Assembly: GCA_051313645.2 (NCBI GenBank)
Contig: JBNRSN020000012.1
Location: 150,598,001-150,662,000, forward strand
Origin: Centroscyllium fabricii
Lineage: Eukaryota
DNA length: 64,000 nucleotides
Direction: 5' to 3'
The position numbers and the translations under genes are program-made. This document shows, one piece after another, positions 45,960 to 64,000 of this stretch (within the stretch, counting starts at the first letter, position 1; each line of letters opens with the position of its first letter). The notes under the pieces are model-generated. The model worked only from the letters and a program-made list of their open reading frames with translations. It searched no databases and was not told the DNA's origin.

Positions 45960-48903
45960 GAACAATGGAACAAAGTTCATTGGAAGGGGAGGTGGGGTGG
46001 CTATGTTAGTAAGGCAAGGTATCACGGCAATACAGCGGAATGATATTGGTTCAGAGCATCAAGATGGTGAAACAGTTTGGGTGGAAATAAGAAATAATAA
46101 AGGGAAAAAAACACTAGTGGGCGTAGTCTATAGGCCTCCAGACAGTTGTAACACAGCTGGTCGGAGTATAAATCAGGAAATAGTTGGGGCTTGTAATAAG
46201 GGAACAGCTATAATTATGGGAGATTTTAACTTTCATATTGACTGGACTAATCAAGTTGGACAGGGCAGCCTTGAGGAAGAGTTCATTGAGTGTATTAGGG
46301 ATGGGTTCCTTGAACAGTACATAACTGAACCGACCAGGGGGCAAGCAATCTTAGATCTGGTCCTGTGTAATGAGACAGGATTAATTAAAAATGTCCTAGT
46401 AAAGGATCCCCTTGGAAAGAGTGACCATAACATGGTCGAATTCCAAAATTCAATTAGAGGGTGAGAGGGTTGGATCTCAAACAAGGGTACTGAGCTTAAA
46501 TAAAGGAGACTATGATGGTATGAGAGCAGAATTGATTAAGGTGGACTGGGGAAACAGATTAAAGGGTAAGACGGTACATGATCAGTGGTGTGTATTCAAG
46601 GAGTTATTTTATAACTTTCAAGAAAAATATATTCCACTGAGGAAAAAGGGGTGTAAAAGAAAAAACAACTATCCGTGGCTAAGTAAAGTAATAAAGGAGA
46701 GTATCCGACTAAAAACAAGGTTATATAAGGTAGCTAAATCTAGTGGGAAGATAGAAGATAGGGAAGCTTTTAAATGTCAGCAAAAGATAACAAAAAGATT
46801 GATTAGGAAAGGGAAGATAGATTATGAAAGTAAATTAGCAAAAAATATAAAAACAGATAGCAAGAGTTTCTATAGCTACATAAAAAGAAAAAGGGTAGCT
46901 AAAGTAAATGTTGGTCCTTTAGAGGATGAGACCGGGAAATTAATGGTAGGAGACATGGAGATGGCAAAAGCGCTGAACAAATATTTTGTATCAGTCTTTA
47001 CAGTAGAGGACACTCAAAATATCCCATCATTGGATAAACAGGTGGCTCTAGGGGGGGAGGAGCTAATTACGATTAAAGTAACTAAGGAGGTGGTACTCGG
47101 GAAAATTATGGGACTTAAGGAGGATAAATCCCCTGGACCTGATGGCTTACATCCTAGGGTCTTGAAGGAAGTGACGGTAGGGATTGTGGATGCGTTGGTA
47201 ATAATTTTTCAAAACTCACTGGACTCGGCAAAGGTTCCGGCAGATTGGAAAACTGCTAACGTAACGCCGTTATTTAAAAAGGGTAATAGACAGAAGGCTG
47301 GAAATTTTAGACCAGTTAGCCTAACATCTGTGGTTGGCAAAATGTTAGAATCTATTATTAAGGAAACAGTAACAGGGCATTTGGATAAACACCATTTAAT
47401 AGGACAAAGTCAGCATGGTTTTACAAAGGGGAAGTCATGTTTGACAAATTTGCTAGAGTTCTTTGAGGACATAACATATAGGGGGGATAAAGGGGAACTA
47501 GTGGATGTGGTGTATTTGGACTTCCAAAAGGCATTTGACAAGGTGCCCCACAGAAGATTATTACTCAAGATAAAAAATCACGGGGTTGGGGGTAATATTC
47601 TGGCATGGGTGGAGGATTGGCTTTCTAACAGAAAACAGAGAGTTGGGATAAATGGTTCGCTCTCAGACTGGCAGTCAGTCACTAGTGGTGTTCCGCAAGG
47701 GTCGGTGCTGGGACCCCAACTCTTTACAATCTATATTAACGATTTGGAAGAAGGGACCAAGTGCAACATATCAAAGTTTGTGGATGACACAAAAATGGGA
47801 GGGAGGGTGATGAATGAGGAGGACATCAAAAACCTGCAAAAGGACATAAATAGGCTAAGTGAGTGGGCAGAGATTTGGCAGATGGAGTATAATACTGGAA
47901 AATGTGAAGTTATGCACTTTGGCAGGACAAATAATAGAGCGAGTTATTATCTAAATGGAAAGGAACTGGAAAGTACTTCAGTGCAAAGGGATCTGGGGGT
48001 CCTGGTGCAGGAAACACAAAAAGTTAATATGCAGGTGCAGCAGGTGGTAAGGAAGGCCAACGGAATGTTGGCTTTTATTGCTAAGGGGATTGAGTATAAA
48101 AGCAGGGAGGTCTTGCTGCTGTTGTACAGGGTATTGGTGAGACCACACCTGGAATACTGCGTGCAGTTCTGGTGTCCCTATTTAAGAAAGGACATACTTG
48201 CTCTCGAGGCAGTGCAGAGAAGGTTCACTAGGTTAATTCCGGGGATGAGGGGGCAAACATATGACGAGAGGCTGAGTAGATTGGGCCTCTACTCATTGGA
48301 GTTCAGAAGAATGAGAGGCGATCTTATTGAAATATATAAGATTGTGAGAGGGCTTGATCGGGTGGATGCGGTGAGGATGTTCCCAATGGTGGGTGAGACT
48401 AGGACTCGGGGGCATAATCTTAAAATAAGGGGCTGCCATTTCAAAACTGAGATGAGGGGGAACTTCTTTACTCAGAGGGTGGTGCGGCTGTGGAATTTGC
48501 TGCCCCAGAGAGCTGTAGAAGCTACTACGTTGAATAAATTTAAAACTGAGATAGACAGTTTCCTGGAATTAAAGGGAATTAGGGGTTATGGTGAACGGGC
48601 TGGTAAGTGGACGTGAGGCTAGGTGCAGATCGGCCATGTGATCTCCTGGACCAGTTTTCGATCGCCTAGATGGGTCGGAGCGGAATTTTCCTGATTTTTT
48701 TTTCTCCCAAATTGGCTACTTTTTTTTTTTAGCTTGTTTTTCGCCTCTCCCAGGTGATCACATTGGTCTGGGCGGGGTGGAGAGTAAAAATAAAATTGAG
48801 GTTAGGATCAGATCAGCCATGATCTTGTTGAATGGGTGAGCAGGCTCGAGGGGCCGATTGGCCTACTCCTGCTCCTATTTCTTATGTTCTTATGTTCTTA
48901 TGT
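45960..48903 (+). mobile_element. 5'-truncated CR1 LINE with most of ORF2
   Basis: Partial APE (VYRPP, GDFN, SDHN); one frameshift near 46445; RT open to 48616 (FVDD); tail (TTCTTATG)n. Confidence 0.93.
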
Positions 48904-56569: not shown

Positions 56570-57206
56570 ATACTCAACTAATCAGACGTAAGTACAAGGG
56601 ACAGCTAAAGAAAGCGAAGGCTGCTATTAGATCAGCTTAAAAGATAATGGAAAAGAGGATTGTAGACAAGTATGGAAGTATTGGAAAAGGCTTTTCCAGT
56701 TATGTGAAAAGACAGAGAACTCTCAAAGACTGTTGGGCCATTGAAGAACACTCAAGGACAGGTTACGAAGGACTCACTGGATATGGCGTAAATATTAAAT
56801 GAGTACTTTGCATCAATTTTCACTCTTGAAGACAATGCTCAACTGTTAGAATTTAATGATGATGGTAATAATAAAACTAGTAATATTAACATAGATGAAC
56901 ATATTCTTTTAGATAGAATTAAGAACCTGAAAATAGATTGACCAGCCAGGCCAGATGATGTCCACCTGATGATCCTCAGGGAGATGGAACATGTGCTGTG
57001 TGAGCCCCTTGCCTGTATTTTACATAGCTCACTGCACTCTGGGATGGTTCTAGTACACTGGAAAGAGGCTAATGTAGTCCCCATCTTTAAAGAAGGAGAC
57101 AAGACAAACTCGGGTAACTATAGGCCCATTTGTTTGACATCAGCAATAGGAAAGATGCTTGAGGTAATCATCAGGGATGCAATGTATTATTACTTGAATA
57201 GAGAGG
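56570..57206 (+). pseudogene. old CR1 ORF2 fragment
   Basis: WKEANVVPIFKEGDK..NYRPICLTS. Confidence 0.8.
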
Positions 57207-58465
57207 GACACCAAAGGGAATTCCTCCAACTGACCCATGAGGGTCCAGGAGCAGGGCATCCCGGGCCTGAGGCCACCTGGCAACGGGTGCAACAGGCAGG
57301 ATGGTGGCCAGGACTGAGGGGACAAGTTCTGTGTCGGTTGTCTGGTGTGTGCTGCCAATAGCCCTGACCCCCAGAAAAGACAGGTATCTTTGGGACACAT
57401 CAGGAATATAGAAGGATCATGGCAGTCAATGCAAATCGATTACATCGGGCCCCTATCCACCGTCCAGGGAGGCTACAAGTGCTGCCTGGTCCTGGTGGTC
57501 GTGTTTTCAAAATGGGTGGAAGCTTTTCCCTACCAAACAGCTACCGCATTGGGTACAGCTAAGATCCTGGTCAGGGAAGTGTTCTCACGATGGGGACTAT
57601 CGCAGTATGTGGAGTCTGACCAAGGGAGTCATTTTACCGGGCAGGTCATGCAAGAGACCCTCATGGGCCCGGCATTGAAGGGAAATGGCACGTAGCCTAC
57701 AACCCACAGTCATCGGGTCCTGTGGAGCGTTTAAACCGCACCATCAAAGAAAGGCTGCGCAATGAGACAGGAGACTCACCCAAGAAGTGGGTAGAAGTCT
57801 TCCCGTTGGTCCTAATGGGGATCCGAGCCAACCAGTCAAAAAGCACGGGGTATTCCCCATACGAGCTCATGACTGGTAGGGTTATGCGGACTCCCACCCA
57901 TGTGCTAGCCCCGGTGCTCATGGAAGGTCAGCTCAGAGAGGTGAACCGGGACAGCTTCATCAGGAATCTGTTTGAACACCTTAAAAAGATTCACTGGTAG
58001 GCTGCTAGCAACATGGGAAAACAGCATCGGAGTAACCAACTGCTGCTAGATTCCCACAGGCACCATGAGTGGGAGACAGGGGATCAGGTCATGGTGAGGA
58101 ACTTTGCCCGGTTAGGGAGTTTTGAACCATTGTACATGGGGCCGTACAGCATTGTAGACAAGGCCAGCCCCATGGTATATGCCATAGAGATGCCCCGCCA
58201 CACAAAGTGGTTCCACATTAACCAGTGTAAACTGTTTAAAACCAAGAATGGAGAACGGCCAGCAAGGGTGAACCGCCCAAAAGATAGAGATCCTCAGCCA
58301 GCAGCTGTGGCAGACTCACAGACCGCACCGGAGGGGGCAGTGGTTTGTGTCACTGGAGAGGCCAACCCATCAATTATGTGGGACTCGGACACACCCCCAG
58401 TAGCCGGAGCCTTAAGAAGGTCTCTTTGCATACCACAGCCTGAACTACCGTGGTCACCAGTGTAG
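57207..58465 (+). pseudogene. pol: integrase of a retrovirus-like element (5' part of the element missing)
   Basis: HEGPGAGH..C..C; WQSMQIDYIGPL; FSKWVEAFP; SDQGSHFTG; NPQSSGPVERLNRTIK; GPY module; frameshifts. Confidence 0.9.
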
Positions 58466-59002: not shown

Positions 59003-59025
59003 ATCTGTTTTATGTATCCCTACAG
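59003..59025 (+). promoter_or_regulatory. putative env splice acceptor
   Basis: TCTGTTTTATGTATCCCTACAG ends just upstream of the signal-peptide ATG at 59039. Confidence 0.5.
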
Positions 59026-60146
59026 AGAGGAAATCGGCATGAGAAGGGTTCTGCTCCTGCTCACCCTGGTAGGGATGAGCATCGGTGAACGAGCTGAAGT
59101 GGAGAACTCCCACATCTTTGGGTGCTCGGGAGAGAGAGCACCAATCGTTACCGCAGGGGGTGGCGAACGGGGTGTGGAGGGGCTCACTGTTTACTTCCAC
59201 GAGGGAAGGTGGCCAGGGTGGCTGGGGTCCAACTCTACAAAATACTCCAGCCAGACCGGGTTCAGATACAGGGAGGCCTCCATCCCGTGCTCCAGGGTAC
59301 AGATCGCGGCCACATGGATCAGTGTCACTGAGGGGAAACGTGTGTGCCTCACATGTAAAGGACAGATTCTCCTGGATAGGTGGTGGCTAAGGAAACTGAG
59401 CAAGGACATAGGGGACCGTACAGTCAACTGGGAACGTTTGGGGAACAATACCCATCGGACTATCACAGGGACCCGAGGGGGAGTGAGTGTGTGCTGGGAC
59501 AAGTGGTGGGAGCTGGATCAGGGGATTTACATTTGTATGTGGGGGTCAGAGAAAGCCTGCCACACAGGCGTATCCATCATCTTCCACAGTCAATGGCAAG
59601 ATAACGGGAATGGGATGGAGTGGGATTCTAGCTTACATGCGTGTGCGGTCCCATACTCCCCGATCCCAGTCAACGCCACCGAACTTGTAACCCGCCCCCG
59701 AATGCCCCTGCCCACGACCACGACATCACGGCCCATAGTAGAGAGGTGTCCTACCACTACCAAGGGACCAGGGAATGGGCTAGTATTAGTGCCGACCAAA
59801 AAGGTATTATACCAGGGGTACACTATGCAGTAGCTTCAGTGATCCTAAACCTTACCGAGGTACACTTACCTGAATGGTGCCCAAAGGAGACAGAACAGCT
59901 GTACCAAGCCCTGCTGAAGGAAATGGTTAGGTAATTTTATGAATTTGACTTTGCCAATGTAAACAAAGCAAAACTGTACAGTTTACATCCTGAATATAAT
60001 ATGGGCACGGAGAGCCAAAGAAGGGGAACCTGGAACGATATTTTCACTGCCTATAATACAGGATTCTCGGTAATAAATAGCCTGGATGACATAGAACTGC
60101 AAACACAGATAAATGGTTTAAAAACCCAATTAAGATAAATCCTAAC

Positions 60147-61577
60147 TGAAAGGATTACAACATTTCGTGTGTGTTCCCCCTGTAGAAGATTGGCGGTATT
60201 ATGTTGTGAAGATTAATGTAAAGACCCTGGCGGGACTGTTTTAGAAGCCCAGGGCAGAAATGGGCACATAAAATGTTCAAAAAATGGCCGATCAGTAAAA
60301 CGCTGCTTTTCTTAAAGTGAAAAGACAATCTCCCAGCCGGTGTCTGTGTGAATTATGCAAAGATCTGCCGAGGTGGCTTGAAAACCAAGCCTGTCTTTCA
60401 TATGCAGAAAGGACAATGAGGTCCAGTAAAAACCTTTCCAGGTGGGAGAAGCAATTTTTACATATGGATACAGCCGGAGCCTCTGAGTCTCGAACAAGCC
60501 TCAAAAATTGTACTGTAACAATGAAACGGCAGTTGGAAGCCAATCACAGCTAGTAGGTGTTAATCAAATAATGAGGTAAAGTCATTGAAATTCGAACAAC
60601 ACAATGGGAGGTGTTAATGGCCATTCAGGAAAACGATCACCGGCCATCAAAGTGGATGGACCATCATCGAAACCTTTTGTCTGAGATTTTACACCCAAAC
60701 CAGTTCAAAGGTGCAGAAAGAGTATAATTGGGATGTCCAGCCTCTCTCTCACGCTCTCTGTTTCCTATTCTGCTCTCTGCCTGAGCTCTGGACCTGGCTG
60801 TGTGAGAAGGAAGACCTTTTACTAGAAGATTACTTTGACAACCCGCAGCCAGGAAAACCCAGGCCAGGCATAAGCAATATTCAACTTTCTGCAGGTGAGC
60901 ATAATTTTTCTGACTGTCGCAGACATCTTAGGCTAGGCTAGGTTTAAGGGAAGGGGGTTAAGGAGATTGCTAAAATTGTCATTTTAGAGATTTTCCCTCG
61001 ATATGTTCGATTCCTCTCCCCCCACCCCCCGTTAATTGCACAGCTTTAAGTTTGTCTTATGTATGTAGTCGTTTTAACCTGTAATTTTATTAGATCTGTA
61101 ATAAAACCATTTGTTTTCTTGTAACGAAACCACGACTCTGCCTGCTGTTTGTCTTATCACTGCTGGATAAGTCCCAGGACTAGAACTGAGTAAAGGGGAG
61201 CGATTCAAAACGTACTGTCTCCCAAGTGTCTATTTAAAGAGTATTCTCCACCCAAATTCTGGAGTTAGAACCAGATAGGGGCATTAGGGCGCTTCAAACC
61301 CGCCAAACTAGGGACCAGCAGACTAGGGAAAAGGGAGAGGACTCCAGGCGCACGTGGGCTCGAGAATACCCCCACAGGTTAGGTATAAACTGTGTGGGTT
61401 GCCACCGTATTGAGTTCTCCTCTATAAGCTGTTGTTTCCCTATCTCCTTAGAGGGTGTTTAGTGACACCCGACCTGCAGGTCATAACATAAGCTGTAAGG
61501 GTATAAAGGAGACCAAGGCCCAATACACCAACAGGCACTAGAGACCCCTGCAATTGGGCAGACCAAAAACCCCTACA
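60147..61577 (+). mobile_element. long solo LTR (ERV-like)
   Basis: TGAAAGG...CCTACA; 4-bp TSD TAAC; AATAAA near 61100; removal restores the env frame (ILT|EENRV). Confidence 0.8.
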
Positions 61578-62170
61578 TAACAGAGGAGAATAGAGTGGCA
61601 GGCTCAGAGTTACACGAGGACCAAGCTATGTCAGTCCATTTAAAGGAAATTATTGCTGAGCTGGAGACACGCCAAATCAGTAAATGCATTGTTACGGGTG
61701 GACAGGAATGCTTCAGATCAGGCTGTACAGAATGAGGTGTGTGTGCTATACAGGACATGGTTGCTAGGTGAGGGATGTAGCAAACTGGAGGATTTAAAAC
61801 AAGGTTTAGTCCCCTCCTGAATTAGCAACAAGCACCCCGCAGCCCTCCACCTGTTTAGGAATTCGCTGAGCCCGTGTCAGCTTCATCTAGCCTCTGAAGC
61901 CTACCCTGTCCCAGTGGATTGTGGACGTTCCAATCACATTATTATGGGGATAGTAGTGAGGATGCCGGTCATGGGTGGGACAGCCCAACCCGCACCGGTA
62001 TACAGGGTGGAGAACATTGGGATCATTCAAGGGGGTGCACACATCCGTTTCGCAGCGGTCCCACCTTATGTCATAAAATGGGAGCACGCTATAACAGGTA
62101 CAGACCGCTCCGGAGCCGGGGTGCCCACATAATACTGTGTCCCCAGCACTTGAATGCCTATTCCAGACCA

Positions 62171-62335
62171 TTGTAAGAAGTCACACAACACCAGGTTATA
62201 GTCCAACAGTTTTATTTGAAATCACAAGCTTTCGGAGTAGCTTGTGATTTCAAATAAAACTGTTGGACAATAACCTGGTGGTGTGTGACTTCTTACAATT
62301 GTCCACCCCAGTCCAACACCGGCACCTCCACATCA
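62171..62335 (+). mobile_element. Penelope-like hairpin insertion
   Basis: 60-bp inverted arms 62171-62230 and 62239-62298 plus a 37-nt tail; 12-bp TSD TATTCCAGACCA. Confidence 0.75.
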
Positions 62336-62456
62336 TATTCCAGACCACAGTGCGGGTTTAAAGCTGCTGGCTCACAACCTATTAACTGTACCATGGAGGT
62401 AATGGCACAAGGACATGTTCCCCCACAGGTAGCATTCATAGCGGGTGGGACATATT

Positions 62457-62654: not shown

Positions 62655-64000
62655 ATCACGGCCTAATTGAAACCCTGCGATGGGGGCAATGGGCCCACCA
62701 GGTTGAATTGACAACTGGACCAACACCTGCCAGGACTGTCAGCGCGCCAAGGTCCATCAGCATACCAAAGCTCCCTTGCAAGATTTTCCGGTGCCCGAGC
62801 AGCGCTTTGATCATGTCCATGTGGACCTGGTGGGCCCATTGCCCCCATCGCAGGGTTAACAATTAGGCCGTGATGGGCCAATCTCTGAAAAAGAGAGCGC
62901 AGGTGCATTACATGTTGAGATTCGTTAGCACTAGCAACTAAAATGTCATCAAGATATACAAACAAAAAGGCCAAGTCCCGAAGGACAGAGTCCAGCAACC
63001 GTTGGAAAACCTGTGCCGCATTCTTTAACCCGAAAGGCATGCGCAGGAATTCAAAAAGTCCGAATGGCATAATAACGGATGTTTTTTGGATGTCATCTGG
63101 ATGGACCGGGACCTGGTGATACCCTCGCACGAGGTCGACTTTCGAAAAAATGGTAGTGCCCACTAAATGGGCCGCAAAGTCCTGAATATGTGGTACCGGG
63201 TATCTGTCTGGCGTGGTGGCGTCGTTAAGGCACATGGTCGCCAACCGCCTCCTGGCTTGGGGACGATGTGGAGTGGGGACAACCACGGGCTGTTGGAAGG
63301 TCGAATGATCCCTAACTTCTCCATGGCTGAGAATTCCTGCTTGACCACCACCATCTTCGTAGGGTCGAGGCGTCTGGCTCGAGCGAAGACCGGTGGACCA
63401 GTAGTAGCGATATGATCTTGGACGCCGTGTTTGGCTGACCCATCGGAGAATGTTGGCTGCATGATGGCCGGGAACTAGGCCAGCAGGTGTGCGTACTTGT
63501 CGCCCGGAGGAGGAGAGCAGGAGCTTATGAGGGGTTGGCCATCACTTCGCTGGCAGGGGAACGATGCGAAAGTAGATGCATCCATCAGACATCTGCCCCG
63601 GATGTCCATGAGCAGGCCGTGGGCACACAGGAAATCCTCACCCAGCAATGGATGTGCTATATTGGCCGTGACAAAATGCCAGGCAAACCGTTGGTCACCC
63701 AGTCGGATTTCCGCTTGCCGCTTACCGAATGTGGCTATTGCTACGCCATTCACTGCCACGAGGAGTGGGCCGCTGCGGCCGGACTGTTGATTGGAGTGCG
63801 TGGCTGGTAAGATGCTGAGCTGGGCCCCTGTGTCGCAGAGGAATTGTTGCCCGGATAGAGAGTCTGTAATATACAGCAACTGACCTGCTGTGCCCATGGC
63901 GTTAGCAGCGGCTGGTCCTTGGAGGTGCAGCTGGCTCGGAGAATTGGGCTTGGTTTGGGCCACCTTGCCGTCGAAGGAGCAAGGTGGTCGGCAGCGGTGG
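62649..64000 (-). pseudogene. gag-pol: rearranged CsRn1-like gag-pol fragment (runs off the window)
   Basis: HRCRPPCSF CHCC end; FLCDTGAQ protease; RT with YLDD; stop at 63475; inverted integrase piece at 62706-62856. Confidence 0.88.

Follow-up and report, generated by a model that had tools for sequence, protein, structure and literature searches.

Introduction

The lokiretroviruses are distinguished by gag, pol and env open reading frames (ORFs), long terminal repeats (LTRs), a tether plus a new RNase H, and an F-like envelope protein (Env), which combines a signal peptide, an RXKR-type cleavage site, a fusion peptide and a transmembrane (TM) segment and is related to PF00523 (Wang and Han, PMC7947760; PMC9040795). 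They were reported from none of six chondrichthyan genomes (PMC7947760), and in the available parts of that paper the Env model names no immunoglobulin (Ig) domain, the word 'immunoglobulin' occurring 0 times in its supplement. In paramyxovirus and pneumovirus F, baculovirus F and errantivirus F-type Env, as far as the available portions of the sources describe them, the F2 part follows right after the signal peptide or a separate attachment protein exists (bioRxiv 10.1101/2023.10.26.564294, PMC3564117). Gamma-type Envs place an N-terminal V-type-Ig-like beta-sandwich and then a proline-rich hinge before the fusion machinery (PMC7683403, PMC9967133). Here we analyzed a window of 64,000 nucleotides (nt) from Centroscyllium fabricii (contig JBNRSN020000012.1, forward-strand positions 150,598,001 to 150,662,000; positions below count from the first letter of the window), which contains the 5' portion of env from a lokiretrovirus-like endogenous retrovirus (ERV). 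In this Env a predicted Ig domain stands in frame with a likely F-type fusogen and probably forms a built-in receptor-binding head.

The family of this element shares with the lokiretroviruses the gag-pol-env genes, LTRs, tether plus RNase H and F-like Env described in PMC7947760, and homologues of its Env were found in both Latimeria and Xenopus tropicalis, which are known lokiretrovirus hosts according to the same source. Unlike the published Env model, with which it was compared by description, it carries about 220 residues, including the Ig-like domain, before the F part. It resembles the F proteins of paramyxoviruses, pneumoviruses and baculoviruses and the errantivirus F-type Env in having a predicted class I fusogen with a furin site and a fusion peptide, and differs from them in its Ig head. 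The layout, which an earlier note on this DNA had not known from described retroviral Envs, does have an analogue in the gamma-type receptor-binding domain and hinge (PMC7683403, PMC9967133), but the F-type version was not found in print. The analogy is one of layout. The gamma-type domain is a decorated Ig-like sandwich, whereas the window domain keeps the canonical Ig-superfamily Cys, Trp and DxGxYxC, and the gamma-type TM subunit and the F-type fusogen are unrelated fusion modules. Likewise, the V-set domains of CRTAM and nectin-like proteins (PDB 4h5s, 3rbg) show low identity to the window domain, which has extra Cys and Trp and no C2 domains. Herpesvirus vIg proteins and the poxvirus haemagglutinin are also viral surface glycoproteins with a V-like domain, to which weak fold matches were obtained, but they are stand-alone proteins that are not fused to a fusogen.

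No description of an Ig head on an F-type Env was found in the literature searched, a search that left out subscription journals and bioRxiv supplements. A word search gave no relevant use of 'immunoglobulin' in PMC9040795, PMC12440569, PMC13709493, PMC11521997 or the errantivirus preprint, the last of which (bioRxiv 10.1101/2023.10.26.564294) contained both 'immunoglobulin' and 'Ig-like' 0 times.

Results

Ig-type motifs are conserved across the family

The env-front ORF of the window (59039-59833, 264 amino acids (aa)) lies 3' of a broken integrase. All of the motifs quoted in the earlier note were found in their places: ISVTEG at 59318, the Cys of VCLTC at 59345 and 59354, WW at 59381-59386, the Cys of VSVC at 59492, DQGIYIC at 59516-59536 and GVSIIF from 59567, with 59 residues between the canonical Cys106 and Cys166. 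A regular expression for the V/I-set, composed with the motif already known, matched 0 of 200,000 shuffles of the ORF. We then compared 73 fetched family loci, which remained after removal of known duplicates. The V/I-set signature present in the window (B-strand Cys, C-strand Trp and D-x-G-x-Y-x-C) was conserved in 65-72 of them, with D or E in 70; the two canonical Cys were kept in 72 and 70 loci, the extra Cys in 71 and 67, and the first C-strand Trp in 71.

The extra Cys pair aligned to outward-facing positions on strands B and E of CRTAM, the adjacent strands on which it had been predicted to sit. These positions presumably correspond to Kabat 20 and 74, which we take to be cross-strand neighbours, and a B-E disulfide between the two Cys is geometrically plausible. 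Five more conserved Cys (family positions 29, 84, 175, 203 and 238) and many conserved Trp were also observed. The surroundings of the domain differed in part from the earlier description. The Ig domain neither follows the signal peptide directly nor caps the N-terminus, since the two are separated by about 68 residues (aa 17-84); strand A is placed near 59290, upstream of the start once given. A Pro/Thr-rich linker does lead to the F part, but the supposed stalk is only about 19 aa long (mean P+T+S content 0.41 over 69 loci), its Thr run is not kept in all subfamilies, and a 30-residue segment with an invariant Cys separates it from the Ig domain.

Several weak tests agree on an Ig fold

The domain very probably adopts an Ig fold, because several weak tests agree, none of which is decisive alone. 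Searched against PDB, a profile built from 10 natural sequences found the CRTAM V domain at E 0.0021, aligned with few gaps along profile positions 8-101 of 108, and the CRTAM-type matches PDB 4h5s and 3rbg (E 0.002-0.004) aligned the A'-B-C-D-E-F-G motifs at full length. Two CRTAM chains led the nine PDB profile matches, among which no nectin or CADM chain occurred. Ig_3 was the commonest Pfam family, always below the cut-off, in 15 of 25 members and, in another set, in 14 of 20 members (best E 0.0012). In ESM Atlas features, unnamed clusters came first (0.93-0.94), Ig clusters followed (0.91-0.92), and all ten best named clusters fell into one clan. Single-sequence phmmer of the window ORF against PDB gave E 0.38 or worse, with FcRL5 and a kappa V domain first; whole-Env queries against PDB sequences gave no match and the alignment profile A1 gave one unrelated match.

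Structural prediction pointed in the same direction. AlphaFold2 (AF2) modelled the isolated domain as all-beta, with a predicted local distance difference test (pLDDT) of 63.7 and a predicted template modelling score (pTM) of 0.54, and AF2, Foldseek and VIA together indicated a Greek-key beta-sandwich at moderate confidence. The PDB rows listed by Foldseek were, judging by titles and lengths, antibody or other Ig-superfamily domains (probability 0.94-1.00, template modelling score up to 0.54). In VIA, titin and obscurin Ig domains ranked first (Z 6.0-6.7), and matches in a viral fold library included herpesvirus vIg proteins, though weakly. Sequence and Foldseek favoured a V-type domain, whereas VIA favoured an I-set one; the AF2 model does not resolve C'/C''.

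The Ig-like domain shares one frame with an F-like fusogen

Although the frame is broken in the window, the Ig and F parts are joined in the family. Among the 29 other top-scoring copies, 22 stayed in a single frame between the Ig region and a point beyond family residue 290, and four more read past the break of the window copy, to residues 270-286; the remaining three ended at the residue of that break, two of them (L009 and L026) with the same out-of-frame tail. Loci chosen for long frames included 15 in which env is unbroken for more than 700 aa and contains the Ig motif, a cleavage site of the form R-Q-[RK]-R and a pre-TM motif. These 15 fall into two subfamilies about 79% identical; RQRR or RQKR occurred in all of them, a feature that the filter partly required. 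The family frame thus holds a signal peptide, the Ig-motif domain, the Pro/Thr linker, an R-x-[RK]-R site and a hydrophobic C-terminal anchor together. Of the two outcomes that the earlier note had named as refuting its reading, a missing Ig fold prediction and a stop or frameshift between the two parts in the family, neither was borne out.

The F part is likely to have the fold of a paramyxovirus-F-type class I fusogen. For Env residues 240-760, the first ESM Atlas match was the PF00523 cluster (score 0.94, 208 of 256 features), which together with the cleavage site agrees with the F-like Env (PF00523) with an RXKR site of lokiretroviruses; the direct Pfam signal was weak. Fusion_gly was matched at E 0.23 in a second lineage of this genome (locus L062) and Baculo_F at E 0.0011 in the homologue P0034, and Pfam returned no F-type fusogen match in the reference copy.

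Selection was examined by pairwise Nei-Gojobori comparison of 18 pairs of natural copies. The ratio of nonsynonymous to synonymous divergence (dN/dS) of the Ig region was 0.09-0.29 in 10 of 12 measurable pairs, below 1 as the earlier note had anticipated. The Ig part is under purifying selection, so that its protein sequence was maintained during the time of viral replication. Comparison of the two young subfamilies showed the head to be more variable than the fusogen (76 of 101 residues identical versus 82-89 of 100). Four-fold sites also differed more often in the front third than in the F1 region (41/75 versus 39/126, Fisher p 0.001; p 0.007 in a second pair, the pairs not being independent), a hint of recombination near the head-fusogen border. 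Between loci L031 and L070, from two subfamilies, synonymous divergence was higher in the head region (env codons 20-237) than in F1 (codons 431-730; p 0.001).

An abundant lokiretrovirus-like family in a cartilaginous fish

A search of the genome (7.2 Gb) with the window env ORF gave at least 145 family copies at 61-85% identity, a lower bound because 145 of 9,256 candidates were scored. This endogenous retrovirus family is thus very abundant in this cartilaginous-fish genome, and its closest database relatives were found in Rhinoraja, Pristiophorus, Heptranchias and Scyliorhinus.

The family likely belongs to the lokiretroviruses, because the gag-pol-env genes, tether plus RNase H, terminal repeats and F-like Env are the marks given in PMC7947760. 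Family copies contain ORFs for a zinc-knuckle gag, protease, reverse transcriptase (RT), tether, RNase H, integrase and env, so that the gene content known from lokiretroviruses (gag-pol-env ORFs and LTRs) is present. In the family pol frame, RT_RNaseH/RT_RNaseH_2 at aa 175-307 and RNase_H at aa 355-497 were all above the Pfam cut-off, which corresponds to the dual RNase H (tether plus new RNase H) of lokiretroviruses. A terminal repeat of about 277 bp was found upstream in two of six upstream loci, one copy being 98.7% identical over 227 bp. The integrase of lokiretroviruses is closest to CGIN1. In the window family the best named pol relatives were 'NYNRIN-like' proteins of sharks, eel and turtle; we take NYNRIN to be the same as CGIN1, and the integrase may be of this type. 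A quick RT-tether tree of 13 rows, without a named lokiretrovirus reference, placed the family outside Ty3/gypsy (99) and outside a class-I-like Gag-Pol group (99), beside NYNRIN-like elements at a fork without resolution. At L090:1743-2267, about 1.4 kb past the LTR, a coiled-coil-looking frame at the 5' end of gag may match the smc-like region of some lokiretroviruses.

Related Envs carry different heads or none

A search of 1.84 billion representatives yielded 48 proteins, from which relatives whose front end is intact and whose F part is distant were classed by their heads. An Ig-like head was found in Chiloscyllium P0012 (UniRef name 'Ig-like domain-containing'; Pfam Ig E about 0.1) and in L062, the second lineage of this genome, which matches P0012. 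In the frogs Pelodytes (P0018) and Mantella (P0044) the evidence for Ig-like heads was at motif level, and the Mantella call rests solely on the motif and 34% identity to the Pelodytes head. The head of P0038 matched Pfam V-set (E 0.0012) without the canonical Cys, in which it presumably resembles CD2-type receptors. Mustelus P0011, Pristiophorus P0020 and Chiloscyllium plagiosum P0028 share, in the same slot as the Ig head, a Cys-rich head that is conserved, about 120 aa long and without Ig signal or Pfam match. In Latimeria P0048 and in P0037 the F part follows directly after the signal peptide.

In a 13-row tree of the F part, the window family was sister to the Cys-rich group (100/100), and P0038 was sister to the headless P0037 (99/98). 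Such placement of differing or absent heads indicates that heads were gained, replaced or lost more than once, and the head looks exchangeable because distant Envs carry other Ig-like heads, Cys-rich heads or none at the same position.

The heads themselves were hard to link. The profile of the window-family head reached frog P0018 at E 1.6e-4 (in one comparison) and bamboo-shark P0012 at 0.0019, with reversed controls at best 0.036. An E-F motif, W-x-x-[FW]-W, is common to the window family and the second shark lineage (HHalign E 0.008, probability 4.8%). By HHalign the frog heads had no significant link to the window head (probability 0.2%) or to that of the second shark lineage, and the window head had only a CxxC stretch in common with the Cys-rich head. 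PDB profile searches with heads of the relatives gave antibody V domains at E 0.15 or worse, and no Ig match for the frog heads.

Some further observations concern these relatives. L062:1459-4011 (minus strand) is an 851-aa open frame with its own Ig-like head, 30% identical to the window family and 45% to P0012; it is the only long stop-free match of its lineage among those listed, its relatives being decayed, and is a candidate for a co-opted env gene or a rare young copy. The P0044 cluster of Mantella aurantiaca has 16 members, most of 677 aa, which lie on many large contigs, and is a young frog F-type Env family whose head may be Ig-like. The database proteins P0007, P0002, P0010 and P0034 combine fragments of this Env with domains known from host proteins (C2H2 zinc fingers, Niban, cadherin, F-box), by exonisation via env splice sites or as gene-model artefacts.

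A proposed role of the head and its alternatives

We propose that Env would be made from a spliced RNA using the acceptor-like site at 59025 (a similar loose pattern occurred in 19 of 21 copies checked, without a chance control). Furin would cleave at R-Q-[RK]-R, leaving the Ig-bearing arm on the F2-like subunit, and the head would project on its short linker and grip a cell-surface protein. The partner might be an Ig-superfamily adhesion molecule of the nectin/CADM type, as the weak CRTAM likeness would suggest; CRTAM is the highest-affinity CADM1 partner (PMC6090299, from the part available). Binding would position or trigger the F machinery, much as the receptor-binding domain and proline-rich hinge of gamma-type Env do. 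Being exchangeable, kept by selection and carried on a short hinge, an exposed head would most plausibly serve receptor binding. The head's greater variability compared with the fusogen, and its replacement or absence in relatives, are what an exposed specificity module would be expected to show. On descent from, or binding like, nectin-like V domains, the one sign is the CRTAM profile match (E 0.002). Capture of the domain from a host Ig-superfamily gene, which would have happened long ago, is plausible; in the search for the closest host domain that the earlier note had proposed, CRTAM came out best, while no donor appeared among longer proteins.

Several observations weigh against a host-derived, receptor-binding Ig head. 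As to the fold, the window Env ORF itself had no Pfam match, and the Pfam scores of family members stayed under the curated 30-bit cut-off for Ig. The match to CRTAM is a weak one that may come from nothing more than a generic V-set pattern, the best Foldseek E was only 3.7e-3, and VIA Z values below 8 are under the level that excludes a merely common arrangement. AF2, which supported the isolated domain, gave pLDDT 37.6 for the whole 243-aa arm, whose Foldseek list was of Ig type at E 0.03 or worse. As to selection, dN/dS was 0.53 and 1.06 in two near-identical young pairs with very few changes, and dS was saturated in six of the 18 pairs (dN 0.20-0.37). No host donor was found; an Ig-profile search of longer proteins yielded six sequences, all of Env type and none of them a host Ig protein. 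Finally, headless relatives (coelacanth P0048; P0037) belong to the same fusogen family, which therefore does not need a head, and pneumovirus F attaches without a separate attachment protein (PMC3564117, as far as the available part goes), so that the earlier premise that F-like fusogens normally need one does not hold for pneumoviruses.

The domain might instead act on host immunity as a decoy or modulator. It would then imitate an Ig-superfamily receptor of the host and engage immune cells or shield the fusogen, and attachment would fall to the F part. CRTAM, the best host match, is a T/NK-cell molecule, the P0038 head is V-set-like without canonical Cys (presumably as in CD2-type receptors), vIg proteins occur in large DNA viruses, and relatives do without a head. 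We nevertheless regard such a role as unlikely: viral decoys are usually separate proteins, the unrelated Cys-rich head in the same slot of the sister lineage suits binding specificity better than mimicry of a single receptor, and the selection is purifying, with no sign, in pairwise averages only, of the fast change expected under immune pressure. About equally improbable is a structural cap or folding aid, in which the domain and its flanking Cys segments would pack on the F head and keep it in the prefusion form until it is cleaved or triggered, and would take no part in receptor binding. The five further conserved Cys could tie the arm together and to F2, and the many conserved Trp and the short linker would fit, but a tight interface is hard to square with unrelated or absent heads before homologous F parts and with a head that diverges faster than F.

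As to origin, the head could be an old virus-borne Ig-like beta-sandwich that was inherited from an ancestral Env and diverged among lineages, a history that competes with host capture because no donor was found, close or otherwise. We consider it rather doubtful, less so than the decoy or the cap. The weak profile scores on the P0018 and P0012 heads, above reversed controls, and the W-x-x-[FW]-W motif shared with the second shark lineage are in its favor, whereas the full canonical signature (B Cys, C Trp, DxGxYxC) is kept, the P0038 head looks like another V-set class while its sister is headless, and HHalign did not connect the window head to those of frogs. An Ig ORF that forms an accessory gene of its own, or motifs that arose by chance, would be by far the least probable explanation. 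The window ORF does stop at 59833 and L009 and L026 share its tail, but the copies that read through in one frame and the absence of a signal peptide of the F part's own speak for a single protein, and the shuffles speak against chance. The separate gene is ruled out by the one-frame copies together with the 15 unbroken full frames. A wider form of the receptor-binding interpretation, which we put forward only tentatively, is an exchangeable slot filled more than once by captured host Ig-superfamily domains (a CRTAM/nectin-like V domain in the shark and skate lineage of the window, a CD2-like V domain in another, more in bamboo shark and frogs) and Cys-rich or empty elsewhere, through which the virus would enter posing as a host adhesion molecule joined to a fusogen of its own.

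Organization of the window copy

The coordinates of the element are given in Table 1. The window copy of env is a decayed fossil: a frame change near 59815-59820, some 24 residues inside the F part, is followed by further stops. The Cys-Pro...Gly-Leu start of the F part recurs in all 13 distant Envs of the tree. The 5' part of the element is missing, and no LTR pair was listed around this copy in the repeat listing of the window.

Table 1. Features of the env region and adjoining pol remnant in the window.
Feature	Position	Strand	Basis
Broken 3' pol: integrase zinc-binding region, core and C-terminal SH3-like domain (5' boundary approximate, read from sequence)	57200..58465	+	Pfam rve E 1.6e-9, SH3_Tf2-1 E 2e-5; ORF pieces
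Splice-acceptor-like pyrimidine tract + CAG, 13 nt 5' of env ATG; putative env acceptor	59003..59025	+	Sequence
Env start and predicted signal peptide	59039..59086	+	Hydropathy peak 1.65
Pre-Ig segment with conserved Cys	59087..59287	+	Alignment A1; Cys kept in 71/72 loci; pLDDT <50
Predicted Ig-superfamily (V/I-type) domain: canonical B-F Cys pair, C-strand Trp, DxGxYxC, extra B/E Cys pair	59288..59590	+	CRTAM profile, AF2, Foldseek, VIA, ESM Atlas, sub-threshold Pfam Ig_3
Post-Ig segment: invariant Cys and glycosylation sequon	59591..59692	+	Cys in 73/73 loci; sequon list
Short Pro/Thr-rich linker	59693..59743	+	Sequence; composition over 69 loci
Start of F-like ectodomain: F2-like part, degraded cleavage site, fusion-peptide region	59744..60153	+	tblastn vs unbroken family member, aa 238-373
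Broken F1-like pieces, family aa 370-606, after 1.4-kb insertion and interrupted again near 62170-62300	61577..62455	+	tblastn high-scoring segment pairs

The insertion within env (60154-61576) had no match among the fetched loci and is possibly a solo LTR or another element, and an inverted repeat (I6, 62166-62303; 65 nt, 95% complementary, 8-nt gap) interrupts the env remnant. The window (1-64000) is mostly mobile DNA, with several 4.2-4.6 kb elements bounded by near-identical terminal repeats (D3, D9, D10 and D11), a 737-aa RT frame of the long interspersed nuclear element type at 46403-48616 and a gypsy-type pol at 62663-63999, the types being judged by eye.

Implications

A real, selectively conserved, in-frame Ig-like domain is thus present on a lokiretrovirus-type F Env, and its function is inferred. 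Known class I fusogens of the F type act by themselves or alongside a separate attachment protein; one with its own Ig head on a Pro/Thr hinge would be a convergent counterpart of the gamma-type receptor-binding domain and proline-rich region, built on unrelated fusion machinery. The family extends lokiretrovirus-like elements to sharks and skates, compared with none in the six genomes of the original screen as reported in the available part of that study (PMC7947760). Because the head is small, soluble and well delimited, the question of the lokiretrovirus receptor becomes testable without the virus. The arrangement also suggests how a single retroviral env gene may gain or change receptor specificity, by swapping its front module.
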